Source: Escherichia phage EF1-1. Taken from it: a DNA stretch of 64,000 bases. The stretch lies in the sequence record PQ571289. One strand, given 5' to 3'. Below, one piece after another: positions 3,208 to 6,746 of the stretch (positions within the stretch are counted from its first letter, which is position 1; each line of letters opens with the position of its first letter). The notes beneath the pieces are model-generated. The model searched no databases. It was not told the origin of the DNA and worked only from the letters and a program-made list of their open reading frames with translations. The position numbers and the translations under genes are program-made.

Positions 3208-3468
3208 TTACTCCGCAATTTGAGCCATGAGATCACGCAGTTCGGTAAAACCGCCTACGTATGTTACCTCCCCGTTCACTTCAGACAGAATTTGTGGAAA
3301 TGTGCGTGGAGGAACTCCGGTAAGATCAACAACTGTTTTAGTCATTGATTCTAAATCATAGTCTTGATCAAGACTTAAATATTCAAACTGTTTATTGCGC
3401 ATGGTTAATAGTTGTTTTGACATTTCGCAAAATTGACAGTTAGGTTTACCAAAAATTACAAATTCCAT
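3208..3468 (-). CDS. glutaredoxin/NrdH-like redoxin
   Basis: 86 aa, N-terminal CxxC (KPNCQFCEMSK) in thioredoxin-fold context; sits in the nrd gene neighbourhood. Confidence 0.7.
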   Translation of the reverse strand: MEFVIFGKPNCQFCEMSKQLLTMRNKQFEYLSLDQDYDLESMTKTVVDLTGVPPRTFPQILSEVNGEVTYVGGFTELRDLMAQIAE

Positions 3469-4310
3469 TACCTCTCCTTATTAAGTAATACTGCTAAAGA
3501 CTGTTCAATACCTTTATTTAAATCTGATTTTGTAAGATAGTGACTGGTTACTAATTGTGACTTCACCGGACGTGCTGCTGGAGCATTATAGGTTGAAGCT
3601 GATACCGCCGATATCTTAACAGGTTCTGGCATCTGTGTCAAGATCTTTTCCGCAAACTCCGCCCAAGAAATAAAATGGCTTCCTGCAAAATGGTAAGTCT
3701 TAACAGACCTTGACCAACCTGTTTTTAATACTTCAAAAATAGCTTCTGCTAAATCTGGAGCATATGTTGGACAAGAGAACTGATCAGCAACAATAATAAA
3801 ATCACGTTGTCCATCGTTATAGCGAGACAACATCGTTTTTAGAAAGTTATTTCCAAATTCACTATATACCGAGGCTGTTCGAATAATATATGCATTTGGG
3901 TTAACTCCTCGCACCATTTTTTCACCAAGTTCTTTCGTATACCCATAATTGTTTATTGGGTTAGGTGTAGTATCTTCAAAAATAGGATGAGAATAATTAA
4001 AAATATAGTCTGTAGAAATATGCACAAAATCAATTTTAAGTTTGCTGCACACTGCCGCAATATTCGCAGGTCCATAAGCATTAACAGCCAAAGCAGTAGC
4101 AAAATCATGTTCTGCTTTATCTACAGCCGTATAAGCGGCGCAATTAATAACACCATCTACATAATCTTCAATAATAGCGTTTCGCACAGCTTCAAAATTT
4201 GTAATATCTACACGTTCTTTAGGATAAATTAAAGATACATTTGAAGGAGCCACTTTACGTAAAGCTTGTCCCAGTTGTCCATTACCACCCAATACCAGAT
4301 ATGTTAGCAT
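3468..4310 (-). CDS. rmlD: dTDP-4-dehydrorhamnose reductase
   Basis: 280 aa; N-terminal Rossmann motif LVLGGNGQLG; last gene of rmlB-A-C-D order; stop/start overlaps with neighbours. Confidence 0.75.
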   Translation of the reverse strand: MLTYLVLGGNGQLGQALRKVAPSNVSLIYPKERVDITNFEAVRNAIIEDYVDGVINCAAYTAVDKAEHDFATALAVNAYGPANIAAVCSKLKIDFVHISTDYIFNYSHPIFEDTTPNPINNYGYTKELGEKMVRGVNPNAYIIRTASVYSEFGNNFLKTMLSRYNDGQRDFIIVADQFSCPTYAPDLAEAIFEVLKTGWSRSVKTYHFAGSHFISWAEFAEKILTQMPEPVKISAVSASTYNAPAARPVKSQLVTSHYLTKSDLNKGIEQSLAVLLNKER

Positions 4311-4870
4311 ACACCCTCACTACGCAACTGTTGAAAAGATTTAGCCATTGCATCTTTTGTTGATAAGATAGGTTTAAAACCTTCGTCAAAAATCATATCG
4401 AAGCCCCAATCGATCCCTATATCAGGATCATCCCAACGTAAACTTTGTTCACTAGAAGGGTCGTATGGAGTTGTGCATTTGTATTCAAAGATAGCATCCA
4501 TACTCAAAACTATAAAACCATGTGCCAAACCAGGTGGAAGCCAAAACTGCGTATGGTGTCGTGCACGAAGAACAACACTGTCCCAAGCACCGTAAGTAGG
4601 ACTATCTTTACGTAAGTCTACAGCGAAATCCAATACTTCACCACTTACACAACGAACAAGCTTACCTTGCGGATTATTTGTTTGAAAGTGCATTCCTCGC
4701 AAAACACCGAAGTTTGATTTAGACATGTTATCTTGAACGAAAGTTTGTCTACCAATGATATCTTCGTATTTTTGTTCATTATATGTTTCTAAAAAGAAAC
4801 CACGGTCATCTTTATAAACGTCTGGTTTGATAATTACCGCACCTTCAATTTTTGTTTTTTCTACTTTCAT
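4304..4870 (-). CDS. rmlC: dTDP-4-dehydrorhamnose 3,5-epimerase
   Basis: cupin-like sequence ([16 protein letters not shown]); start set at internal ATG 4870, which overlaps the rmlA stop in an ATGA arrangement. Confidence 0.75.
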
Positions 4871-5745
4871 TTTCCCTCCGCTAATTTGAGTAGGTATTGC
4901 CCGTACTCTGTTTTCTTCAGTGAGTTTCCATGATAGACCAAAGTCTCTAAAGAAATCCACCCTTTTTTGAAAGCAATTTCTTCCAGGCACGCAATCTTCA
5001 ATCCTTGACAGTTCTCAATAGTCTGCACGAATTGACCAGCTTCCATCAGACTGGCGTGTGTTCCTGTGTCAAGCCAAGTAAATCCTCGTCCGAGAACTTC
5101 TACTTGTAACCTCCTATCTTCGAGGTAGCTGCGATTGATATCGGTGATCTCCAGTTCTCCACGCGCGGAAGGGGTTACTTCTAATGCACGTTGAATAACA
5201 GAGTTATCATAGAAATACAAACCTGTGACAGCATAATCTGATTTAGGATTTTCAGGTTTCTCTTCAATAGAAATAACTTGACGATTACTCCCAAATTCAA
5301 CCACACCGAATCGTTCAGGATCTTTCACCAAACACCCGAAGATACAAGCTCCGCCCCAAACATCTACCATCTCACTAGCGTTAATCAGTAGTTTACCAAA
5401 GCTTTGTCCGAAGAATAGGTTGTCGCCTAAAATAAGAGCAACAGAGTCTTCTCCGATAAAATCTTTACCGATGATGAAAGCGTCCGCAAGACCTCGTGGC
5501 TCGGATTGGATTGCGTAAGTGAGTTTTATCCCAAACATAGACCCATCTCCAAAAAGATGCTCAAAGTCTTCCTGATCGCCTGGTGTGGTGATGATTAAGA
5601 TATCCTTAATGTCAGCCAACATCAATACCGATAAAGGGTAGTAGATCATGGGTTTGTCATACACAGGGAGCAATTGCTTGCTCACACTGCGTGTTACCGG
5701 ATGAAGGCGGGTTCCACTTCCTCCCGCCAAAATAATACCTTTCAT
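4867..5745 (-). CDS. rmlA: glucose-1-phosphate thymidylyltransferase
   Basis: [18 protein letters not shown] nucleotidyltransferase signature; start set at internal ATG 5745. Confidence 0.85.
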
Positions 5746-5753
5746 AACCCTCC

Positions 5754-6746
5754 TTAAATCTTCTCCCTCCACCATTGAGGGTTGTTTAAGTACCATTCAA
5801 TCGTTGAGTAGAGATCTTGTTCAAATGTAGAGTTTGCACTCCAACCCAGTTCAGACTCTATTTTAGAAGGATTGATTTCATAACGCAAGTCATGTCCTTT
5901 ACGATCTTCAACAAAAGTTATCAAGTTGGAAGAAGGGTAGGTTCCTGCTTCTGGATGTACAGCATCTATGTAGTCACAAACCATATAGATGATCTCCATA
6001 TTGGTTTTGGGATTACGTGTTCCAACATTATACGTTTGACCTGGTTCTCCACCTGTTGCCACTTGAAGAATAGCTCGCGCATGATCCTCAACAAAAAGCC
6101 AGTCTCGCACCTGATCGCCTTTACCATACACCGGAATCTCTTTATTCGTCAAGATACTTGTGATGATTTTTGGGATCAGCTTTTCTGGATGTTGATAAGG
6201 TCCAAAGTTATTGGAGCAGTTGGTTATCACAACAGGTAAACCGTAGGTACGGTACCAAGCTTTCACAAGATGGTCAGATGCTGCCTTAGACGCACTGTAT
6301 GGGCTTGAAGGGGCATAAGCTGTCTCTTCGGTAAAGGGAACGCCAGAGTCTGCCATATCGCCGTACACTTCGTCTGTGGAGACGTGTACGAACATCTTCA
6401 GTTTATTTTTTGGGAGGAGCCTTGCAGCTTCCAATAAATTGTATGTACCAATAATATTGGAGTCGATGAAAACTCGTGGATTCTTGATAGAATTATCCAC
6501 ATGACTCTCTGCCGCTAAGTGAATGATGAAATCGGGATTGCACTCTACTACTAAACTTTTGACCTGGGTTTCGTTTGCCAAATCCGTTATGCTTAGTTTA
6601 ACGTGAGTGATATCGCCTACATTCTCAATATCTGCTGCATAGCCCATCTTATCAACGACAAAAACTTCGTTATTGGGATCTTGACAAAGAGAGCGCACCA
6701 CGGCACTCCCAATAAAACCAAGACCACCTGTTACCAGATAGCGCAT
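5754..6746 (-). CDS. rmlB: dTDP-glucose 4,6-dehydratase
   Basis: 330 aa; N-terminal TGGLGFIGS Rossmann motif, YxxxK (YSASKAASD) of short-chain dehydrogenase fold. Confidence 0.85.

Follow-up and report, generated by a model that had tools for sequence, protein, structure and literature searches.

The dTDP-L-rhamnose genes of Escherichia phage EF1-1: a constant gene pair, an optional cassette, and a candidate glycosyltransferase partner

RESULTS AND DISCUSSION

Escherichia phage EF1-1 carries a complete set of genes for the synthesis of dTDP-L-rhamnose. The set lies in the window analyzed here, a stretch of 64,000 nucleotides (nt) from sequence record PQ571289, in which four contiguous open reading frames (ORFs) on the minus strand occupy positions 3468 to 6746 in the order rmlB-rmlA-rmlC-rmlD. 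Judged by their sequences, the four genes very likely encode a working pathway. We propose that the four enzymes would make dTDP-L-rhamnose inside the infected cell and that this sugar nucleotide would feed a cluster of four glycosyltransferases (GTs) known from related phages, namely, an unclassified protein of 187 amino acids (aa), a GT2-like GT-A enzyme, and two GT4-like GT-B enzymes. Together, these would attach a short hetero-oligosaccharide to virion proteins of the phage. Taken as a whole, a route that leads from the rml genes via the GT cluster to an acceptor other than DNA, with virion proteins favored, is the best explanation that we can offer, and we assign it a probability of approximately 0.55.

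The sequence-only reading of the window had described a complete, intact, and coupled rmlB-rmlA-rmlC-rmlD set that a virulent phage carries in its nucleotide-metabolism operon, and this was fully supported. The observation is correct, yet it is not new. The window belongs to a Phapecoctavirus (phAPEC8-like), and the region is 97 to 99% identical to more than 40 GenBank genomes (phAPEC8, ESCO13, and TSP7_1, among others), in which the rml genes are already annotated as dTDP-rhamnose enzymes. Olsen et al. noted the pathway in 2020 and proposed DNA rhamnosylation (PMC7552041). In 2021, however, Maffei et al. reported an exceptional sensitivity of phi92-like phages to restriction-modification (PMC8594841), and Vitt et al. 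repeated both points in 2024. The suggestion of an undescribed modification system was therefore not upheld, the genes having been annotated in dozens of records since phAPEC8 and phi92 and discussed in print by Olsen et al. Three elements are new, namely, the connection with the GT cluster, the division of the rml genes into a core and a cassette, and the fit of that division to the gene content of Escherichia coli hosts.

Four intact genes for dTDP-L-rhamnose synthesis

The pathway consists of the following genes, with the evidence for each assignment in parentheses:

5754..6746, minus strand: rmlB, dTDP-glucose 4,6-dehydratase, 330 aa (TIGR01181 and structure alignment)
4867..5745, minus strand: rmlA, glucose-1-phosphate thymidylyltransferase, 292 aa when read from the ATG at 5745 (TIGR01207)
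4304..4870, minus strand: rmlC, dTDP-4-dehydrorhamnose 3,5-epimerase, 188 aa (TIGR01221)
3468..4310, minus strand: rmlD, dTDP-4-dehydrorhamnose reductase, 280 aa (TIGR01214)

The ATG codons at 5745 (MKGIILAGG...) and 4870 are the likely starts of rmlA and rmlC, respectively. A gene was accepted as encoding a given enzyme when its product scored above the curated cutoff of the corresponding NCBIfam equivalog model. All four products did so: RmlB reached 429.5 bits (cutoff, 365.1), RmlA 458.7 bits (cutoff, 360.65), RmlC 224.1 bits (cutoff, 155.75), and RmlD, by a narrow margin, 238.5 bits (cutoff, 224.05). Pfam assignments of the four proteins agreed with those of NCBIfam.

Comparison with solved structures pointed in the same direction. 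RmlB aligned end to end with the Salmonella enzyme 1G1A (E = 8e-111), and the motifs of the NAD site and the catalytic center that were sought (GxxGxxG, Thr-Asp-Glu, and YxxxK) were kept, the last of them as YSASK. Residues 1 to 290 of RmlA aligned with 4HO0, its best solved relative (E = 3e-123), and the nucleotide-binding motif G-G-x-G-T-R-L was present as GGSGTRL. In the alignment of RmlC with Salmonella RmlC 1DZR (E = 3e-55), the segments RGMHFQ, QGKLVRC, FEYKCT, and STKDA were matched, and the equivalents of the catalytic residues His63, Lys73, Tyr133, and Asp170 (Salmonella numbering) were conserved. The best solved relatives of RmlD were the chains 3SC6 and 1VL0, both nearer than Salmonella 1KBZ. 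The Thr and the YxxxK motif expected of a short-chain dehydrogenase were found in the conserved segments STDYIF and YGYTK.

Pairwise dN/dS values, calculated against ESCO13, phiWec190, and phi92, ranged from 0.04 to 0.28 for the four genes (0.06 to 0.11 for rmlB, 0.04 to 0.28 for rmlA, and 0.10 to 0.27 for rmlD). All four genes are under purifying selection and show no decay. The Rml signatures recognized in the sequence-only reading thus stood up to curated cutoffs and motif inspection. The two objections that it had itself named, that the genes might not be Rml homologues or might be pseudogenes, both failed on these scores, motifs, and dN/dS values.

The genes are tightly packed. The stop codon of rmlA and the start codon of rmlC share an ATGA overlap at 4870-4867, just as had been stated in support of translational coupling. 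The overlap between rmlC and rmlD is 7 nt, and the spacer between rmlB and rmlA is 8 nt long and contains a ribosome-binding site.

A constant gene pair and an optional cassette

The two halves of the cluster differ in how regularly they occur, and the upstream half was delimited by megablast and junction comparison as follows:

4871..6755, minus strand: optional rmlB-rmlA cassette, an insertion/deletion polymorphism within the genus

Megablast detected rmlC-rmlD in 70 phage records, compared with 47 for rmlA-rmlB. ESCO37 and ABPW7, for example, kept rmlC-rmlD and lacked rmlB-rmlA. The junction in ABPW7 is clean: a gene for a 108-aa protein, which in the window lies upstream of rmlB and adjoins rmlC in cassette-free genomes, is joined to rmlC from ribosome-binding site to ribosome-binding site (ctggtaaggagaGAAAATGaaag).

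Composition and similarity likewise separated the two gene pairs. The GC content at third codon positions (GC3) in the window was 0.40 for rmlB and 0.41 for rmlA, compared with 0.27 for rmlC and 0.22 for rmlD, and that of the genes flanking the cluster was 0.29 to 0.34. The value of the cassette (about 0.40) matches the phiWec190 lineage, where GC3 is 0.35 to 0.45 throughout. The identity between window and phiWec190 was 89% for RmlB and 96% for RmlA but 63% for RmlC and 66% for RmlD. In phi92, all four rml genes have a uniformly low GC3. On the basis of record counts, the ABPW7 junction, GC3, and identity, we read rmlC-rmlD as a resident, constant core and rmlB-rmlA as a cassette that was probably lost and regained by recombination among related phages.

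The rml clusters of other Stephanstirmvirinae (phAPEC8, ESCO13, phi92, and phiWec190) are alike in position, gene order, and neighbors. In phi92, a Justusliebigvirus, the same four genes occupy the same place, between the small ORFs that follow nrdB and a gene with a thioredoxin fold. The rml genes of the window share 97 to 99% nucleotide identity with those of Phapecoctavirus genomes, and their products share 54 to 71% amino acid identity with those of phi92. The window does not differ from them in anything essential; it carries the rmlB-rmlA cassette, which is absent from a third of the related genomes.

Fit to the gene content of E. coli hosts

DNA resembling rmlA and rmlB was detected in all 5,426 complete E. 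coli genomes, whereas rfbD was detected in 2,378 of the 5,426 (44%). The former result is no surprise, as every E. coli strain has RffH and RffG of the enterobacterial common antigen (ECA) pathway; RfbA and RfbB are additionally present in some serotypes. Every host can therefore reach dTDP-4-keto-6-deoxyglucose, and more than half cannot finish dTDP-L-rhamnose. Of the four steps, the two that are often absent from its hosts are always encoded by the phage, and the two that every host has are encoded only sometimes. In the mechanism that we propose, rmlC-rmlD would supply the final two steps of the pathway, which many E. coli strains lack, while rmlB-rmlA would act as a booster cassette that duplicates the steps of RffH and RffG, as well as those of RfbA and RfbB in some serotypes. 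Thus equipped, the phage could obtain dTDP-L-rhamnose whatever the O-serotype of its host. This pattern of core plus cassette would neatly illustrate a phage whose metabolic steps are exactly those missing from its hosts.

The cluster shares its four enzyme families, tight packing, and translational coupling with the bacterial rmlBDAC/rfbBDAC operons of E. coli, Salmonella, and Pseudomonas. It differs from them in gene order (B-A-C-D in the phage and rfbB-D-A-C in the host), in an RmlB that falls about 30 residues short of its Salmonella counterpart, in the closer relation of RmlD to 3SC6 and 1VL0 than to 1KBZ, and in location, as bacterial rml operons lie in the O-antigen locus and the phage genes in a nucleotide-metabolism operon. 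Recent capture from E. coli was considered and rejected: the best nucleotide identity among the 5,426 genomes was 64% over at most 45% of the query, and gene order differs.

Candidate glycosyltransferases in related phages

No glycosyltransferase was found in the window by tblastn, in agreement with the sequence-only reading, but as a statement about the genome this premise almost certainly fails. When the check was extended to relatives, a cluster of four GT genes was found both in phAPEC8, which is 98 to 99% identical, and in phi92. In phAPEC8, the adjacent genes G377_gp071 to G377_gp074 lie at 109.6 to 112.8 kb (109618-112765 of the record; locus L003, 14619-17766), between the endolysin gene and the primase/helicase gene, about 15 kb beyond the position that corresponds to the right end of the window. 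The same four genes are present in phi92 (locus L005, 2731-5907). The cluster encodes a 187-aa protein, a 227-aa GT-A, and two paralogous GT-B proteins of about 315 aa that are 41% identical to each other. PHROG assigned all four to glycosyltransferase families, which were the only families matched by the 187-aa protein. A comparison of the 187-aa protein with the GT-B profile (hhalign) revealed no relationship, and searches with three of the four proteins (GT-A, one GT-B, and the 187-aa protein) against PDB sequences gave no match.

The main argument for a link between pathway and GT cluster is their matching distribution. GT-B was detected in 146 phage records, which cover the majority of the other near relatives as well as phi92, and the corresponding number for RmlD was 155. 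These totals were compared as counts and not record by record; both include 106 Escherichia, 5 "Campylobacter," 3 Phapecoctavirus, and 3 Justusliebigvirus records. In PVP-SE1, the homologues of the genes that flank the rml genes (gp139/gp141) and of those that flank the GT cluster (gp006/gp008) are nearly adjacent, and both clusters are therefore subfamily-specific additions. Given this shared distribution, it is somewhat more probable than otherwise that the rml pathway serves the phage's own four-GT cluster. In the literature that was searched, the GT cluster is not linked to the rml genes.

Structure searches with predicted models suggested generic GT2/GT4 folds. The closest folds included PglA/PglH and WbnH, which act on glycans linked to undecaprenyl pyrophosphate (Und-PP), WaaG/WaaB of the lipopolysaccharide (LPS) core, and GT2 enzymes of teichoic acid and polysaccharide synthesis. 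Known rhamnosyltransferases are inverting enzymes that convert dTDP-beta-L-rhamnose to alpha-L-rhamnosides, and for this reason the inverting GT2-like GT-A appears to be the best candidate for a rhamnosyltransferase. The GT4-like enzymes probably use UDP- or GDP-sugars of the host.

Virion proteins as a possible acceptor

The sequence-only reading had left the acceptor unknown, naming virion protein, DNA, and host surface polysaccharide as candidates. That statement remains true, and DNA is the least likely of the three. A virion protein is our tentative choice. Two lines of evidence favor it. A homologous pair of genes for a GT-A (about 210 aa) and a GT-B (about 310 to 320 aa) was found directly upstream of the terminase gene and after the lysis genes in prophages of Pseudomonas silvicola and Serratia and in metagenomic phage contigs (loci L008, 9357-10960; L009, 6128-7670; L011, 714-2317; and L012, 343-1946). 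The pair sits in the late operon of these prophages and looks like a widespread late-operon module, and its placement beside the terminase favors action on the progeny particle. The second line comes from mycobacteriophages. GT-A is homologous to the N-terminal half of the 478-aa GT represented by Fruitloop gp99 (hhalign probability, 99.2%; E = 1e-19), which occurs at locus L015, 3318-4754, and in more than 300 Mycobacterium phage records, all sampled members being F1-type, Cheoctovirus-like genomes. Capsid glycosylation in cluster F1 mycobacteriophages has been reported by Freeman et al. (2023), as cited in PMC11256854 and PMC12582341, and in combination with this homology it favors a virion acceptor. 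Phage-encoded GTs of the kind that virion glycosylation in the lytic cycle would require exist in the relatives phAPEC8 and phi92 and, as far as GT-B is concerned, in all of the 146 records mentioned above.

Phages that carry GT-A and lack rml genes infect Mycobacterium and Pseudomonas, hosts that make dTDP-rhamnose constitutively. This fits rhamnose as the donor sugar, and it fits a need for rmlC-rmlD only in hosts such as E. coli. A broader version of the proposal, in which Stephanstirmvirinae would be self-sufficient, making their own dTDP-L-rhamnose and using four GTs of their own to decorate virion proteins with a rhamnose-containing oligosaccharide, is offered with still more reserve than the choice of acceptor.

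Several points weigh against the proposed route to virion proteins. The presence of the GT cluster in this exact genome is deduced from relatives that are 98 to 99% identical, and its co-occurrence with RmlD is one of totals. The rml and GT clusters are about 70 kb apart, both lie among early or middle genes rather than late ones, and the fold of a GT does not disclose its donor specificity. The proven enzymes of virion glycosylation in Che8, gp108-110, are not homologues of GT-A. Among the window ORFs of at least 100 aa, structural proteins included, a scan for Ser/Thr-rich, acceptor-like tracts found none that was distinctive, and no glycosylated virion protein of phi92 or phAPEC8 is reported in the literature searched.

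Kinship of GT-A to the GTs of Che8 gp108-110, which occupy the equivalent locus (L016, 3172-5674), was tested and rejected in favor of the Fruitloop gp99 type. A homologue of GT-B in Burkholderia dolosa (411 aa; locus L013, 2821-8236) lies just downstream of genes for an intimin/invasin-like adhesin and a 571-aa protein of unknown function. This neighborhood hints at glycosylation of the adhesin, although as evidence for protein glycosylation it is no more than an anecdote.

Alternative uses of the pathway

One gene of the window, listed here with the gene that follows it, bears on the question of a DNA acceptor:

12381-13379, minus strand: divergent ThyX-like "thymidylate synthase," 332 aa (Pfam Thy1, 33 bits)
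13389-13997, minus strand: NT5C-like deoxy-5'-nucleotidase, after the ThyX-like gene

The motif of the ThyX-like protein reads THRLFSRNAASSRA, where a typical ThyX has RHR...S...S.RY. Both genes are common to rV5 and PVP-SE1.

According to the proposal of Olsen et al. (PMC7552041), phage GTs would transfer rhamnose from dTDP-rhamnose to a hydroxylated base in phage DNA and so evade nucleases, in the manner of glucosyl-hydroxymethylcytosine (hmC) in T4 or arabinosyl-5-hydroxycytosine (5hoC) in RB69. The gene neighborhoods speak for it, as the rml genes lie in the nucleotide-metabolism module and the GT genes adjoin those for the primase/helicase and DNA polymerase, and so does the precedent of phage-made sugar nucleotides that feed DNA GTs. 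GT-A, moreover, carries an R...DDD...ED pattern like that of DNA GT-A enzymes and weakly matches TAGT in Pfam (E = 1e-3) and, among the PHROG families, that of beta-glucosyl-HMC-alpha-glucosyltransferase (PHROG-842; E = 8e-6). Both matches, however, are confined to a stretch of about 38 residues surrounding the generic DxD region. When the predicted fold of GT-A was compared with viral structures in BFVD, TAGT proteins ranked only 39th and 45th, and in the structure search the T4 alpha-GT (22nd), the T4 beta-GT (36th), and the DNA GT of HY126 likewise came below generic GT4 enzymes. Characterized routes of phage DNA glycosylation all start from an enzyme that makes a hydroxylated pyrimidine. 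No hydroxylase or hydroxymethylase of the ThyA type and no TET/JBP oxygenase is annotated in the stretches of ESCO13 and phAPEC8 that were read, which cover about 145 of about 148 kb. The only gene resembling thymidylate synthase is the ThyX-like one, which is shared with rV5 and PVP-SE1, phages that lack both clusters. Within 10 kb of the same GT pair in prophages there is no base-modifying enzyme either. Because phi92-like phages are exceptionally sensitive to restriction-modification (PMC8594841), because no enzyme for a hydroxylated base was found, and because the GT folds are generic GT2/GT4, a DNA acceptor is improbable, and we are rather confident that the acceptor is something else. 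In systems of DNA hypermodification (glucosyl-hmC in T4, arabinosyl-5hoC in RB69 and DLP3, and the GTs associated with TET/JBP), a phage supply of sugar nucleotides is likewise combined with several GTs near replication genes. The phages considered here differ from them in that no enzyme for a hydroxylated pyrimidine was found, in their restriction sensitivity, and apparently in specific structural affinity to DNA GTs.

Remodeling of the host envelope is a serious rival, although on balance we regard it as unlikely. Here, the rhamnose pathway and the GTs would build an oligosaccharide either on a lipid carrier of the host (such as the Und-PP-N-acetylglucosamine that WecA makes) or on the LPS core. 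Export would fall to Wzx and WaaL of the host, and the altered surface would exclude superinfecting phages or stop progeny from adsorbing to debris. A set of rml genes with three or four GT2/GT4 enzymes is the usual content of a locus for an O-antigen unit, these phages use the LPS core and surface glycans as receptors, and the predicted folds nearest to the GTs include the Und-PP, LPS core, teichoic acid, and polysaccharide enzymes listed above. Fold matches cannot separate this explanation from one in which virion proteins are the target. It is disfavored by the short time that a lytic cycle leaves for surface turnover and by the position of the GT pair in temperate relatives, which is in the late operon beside the terminase and not where genes for lysogenic conversion are located. 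In addition, the annotations of the ESCO13 and phAPEC8 stretches, although they largely read "hypothetical protein," name no flippase, polymerase, ligase, or Gtr-type membrane component; with the same reservation, the flippase, GT-C transferase, and polymerase of serotype-conversion modules (Gtr, Wzy, and Oac) are not annotated alongside the GTs. A third explanation dispenses with a glycan. dTDP-rhamnose is a known feedback inhibitor of RmlA, and on infection it might inhibit host RmlA/RffH and spare dTTP, or its synthesis might drain the ECA precursor, the GT cluster then being unrelated. Such management of the nucleotide pool would agree with the position of the rml genes, which share a transcription unit with nrdAB/glutaredoxin and further genes of nucleotide metabolism and are embedded among them, and with the sufficiency of rmlC-rmlD alone in a third of genomes. 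However, the phage RmlA and RmlB present in two-thirds of genomes would consume dTTP rather than spare it, purifying selection acts on all four enzymes as for a complete product, and the shared phyletic distribution of rmlD and the GT cluster would be left unexplained. We consider this explanation very improbable, slightly more so than a DNA acceptor.

Relation to known virion glycosylation and implications

The route to virion proteins that we favor has a parallel in the F1 mycobacteriophages, which also combine phage-encoded GT cassettes with a lytic cycle and whose Fruitloop gp99 type is the homologue of GT-A. They differ in having no rml genes, and the gp108-110 cassette of Che8, the phage for which capsid glycosylation was reported, is not homologous to the GT-A of the present phages. 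Glycosylation is also known from Mimivirus, which has GTs of its own and uses UDP- rather than dTDP-rhamnose, and from the capsid glycans of chlorovirus PBCV-1, both of them eukaryotic viruses. The fold similarity to their systems is no better than that to bacterial GT2 enzymes.

As a discovery, the gene cluster is ordinary, being annotated and discussed already. If virions do receive the rhamnose, consequences would follow for immune recognition, for stability, and for interactions with the host in a group that is common in collections of E. coli phages for therapy. Virion glycosylation would then extend beyond actinobacteriophages, and tailed phages that infect Gram-negative bacteria would have their first demonstrated system of this kind. 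The GT-A/GT-B pair, near the terminase in prophages and present in mycobacteriophages, would represent a widespread module for virion glycosylation.

Genomic surroundings

The neighbors of the rml genes and the putative limits of their transcription unit are as follows:

3208..3468, minus strand: glutaredoxin/thioredoxin-fold gene, downstream neighbor (phrog_22, thioredoxin domain, E = 2.6e-16)
6756..7082, minus strand: conserved 108-aa protein of unassigned function, upstream neighbor of the rml cluster (phrog_15453)
8696..8709, minus strand: terminator-like hairpin upstream of nrdB, GGGGCTTCGGCCCC followed by a T-run
500..515, minus strand: terminator-like hairpin downstream, after the HslV-like gene, TGCCCCTTCGGGGGCA followed by a T-run

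The stop codon of rmlD and the start codon of the glutaredoxin gene overlap by 1 nt (TAATG), and the thioredoxin-fold gene has an equal position in phi92 and in PVP-SE1 (gp141). The 108-aa protein is 92% identical to its phi92 counterpart. The cluster had been placed between glutaredoxin and nrdB. Its downstream side agrees with this, as the glutaredoxin gene adjoins rmlD, but nrdB is separated from rmlB by four small ORFs of 108, 54, 50, and 69 aa (6756-7587).

Between the hairpin at 8696..8709 and the rml genes, there was no comparable terminator and no promoter match better than 10/12, and the promoter scan gave nothing convincing directly upstream of rmlB. The hairpin at 8696..8709 is probably the upstream limit of the transcription unit that bears the rml genes, and the one at 500..515 is probably its end. 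The rml genes would be transcribed within a long nucleotide-metabolism unit that extends from nrdB to hslV.

An ORF for an HNH/AP2-like homing endonuclease (217 aa) is located between nrdA and nrdB at 8717-9370 on the minus strand. This slot is variable, as it holds a 112-aa ORF in ESCO13 and an HNH gene in phi92. At about 28 kb of the window, the GC skew changes sign, and minus-strand genes for metabolism and replication give way to plus-strand tRNA, lysis, and structural genes. Among the records matching positions 3400-6850 of the window, several near-identical Phapecoctavirus or phi92-like genomes bear unlikely host names: Campylobacter phages B15 and A145, Acinetobacter phage ABPW7, Pseudomonas phage PsgM04F, and Dompiswa phage TSP7_1.

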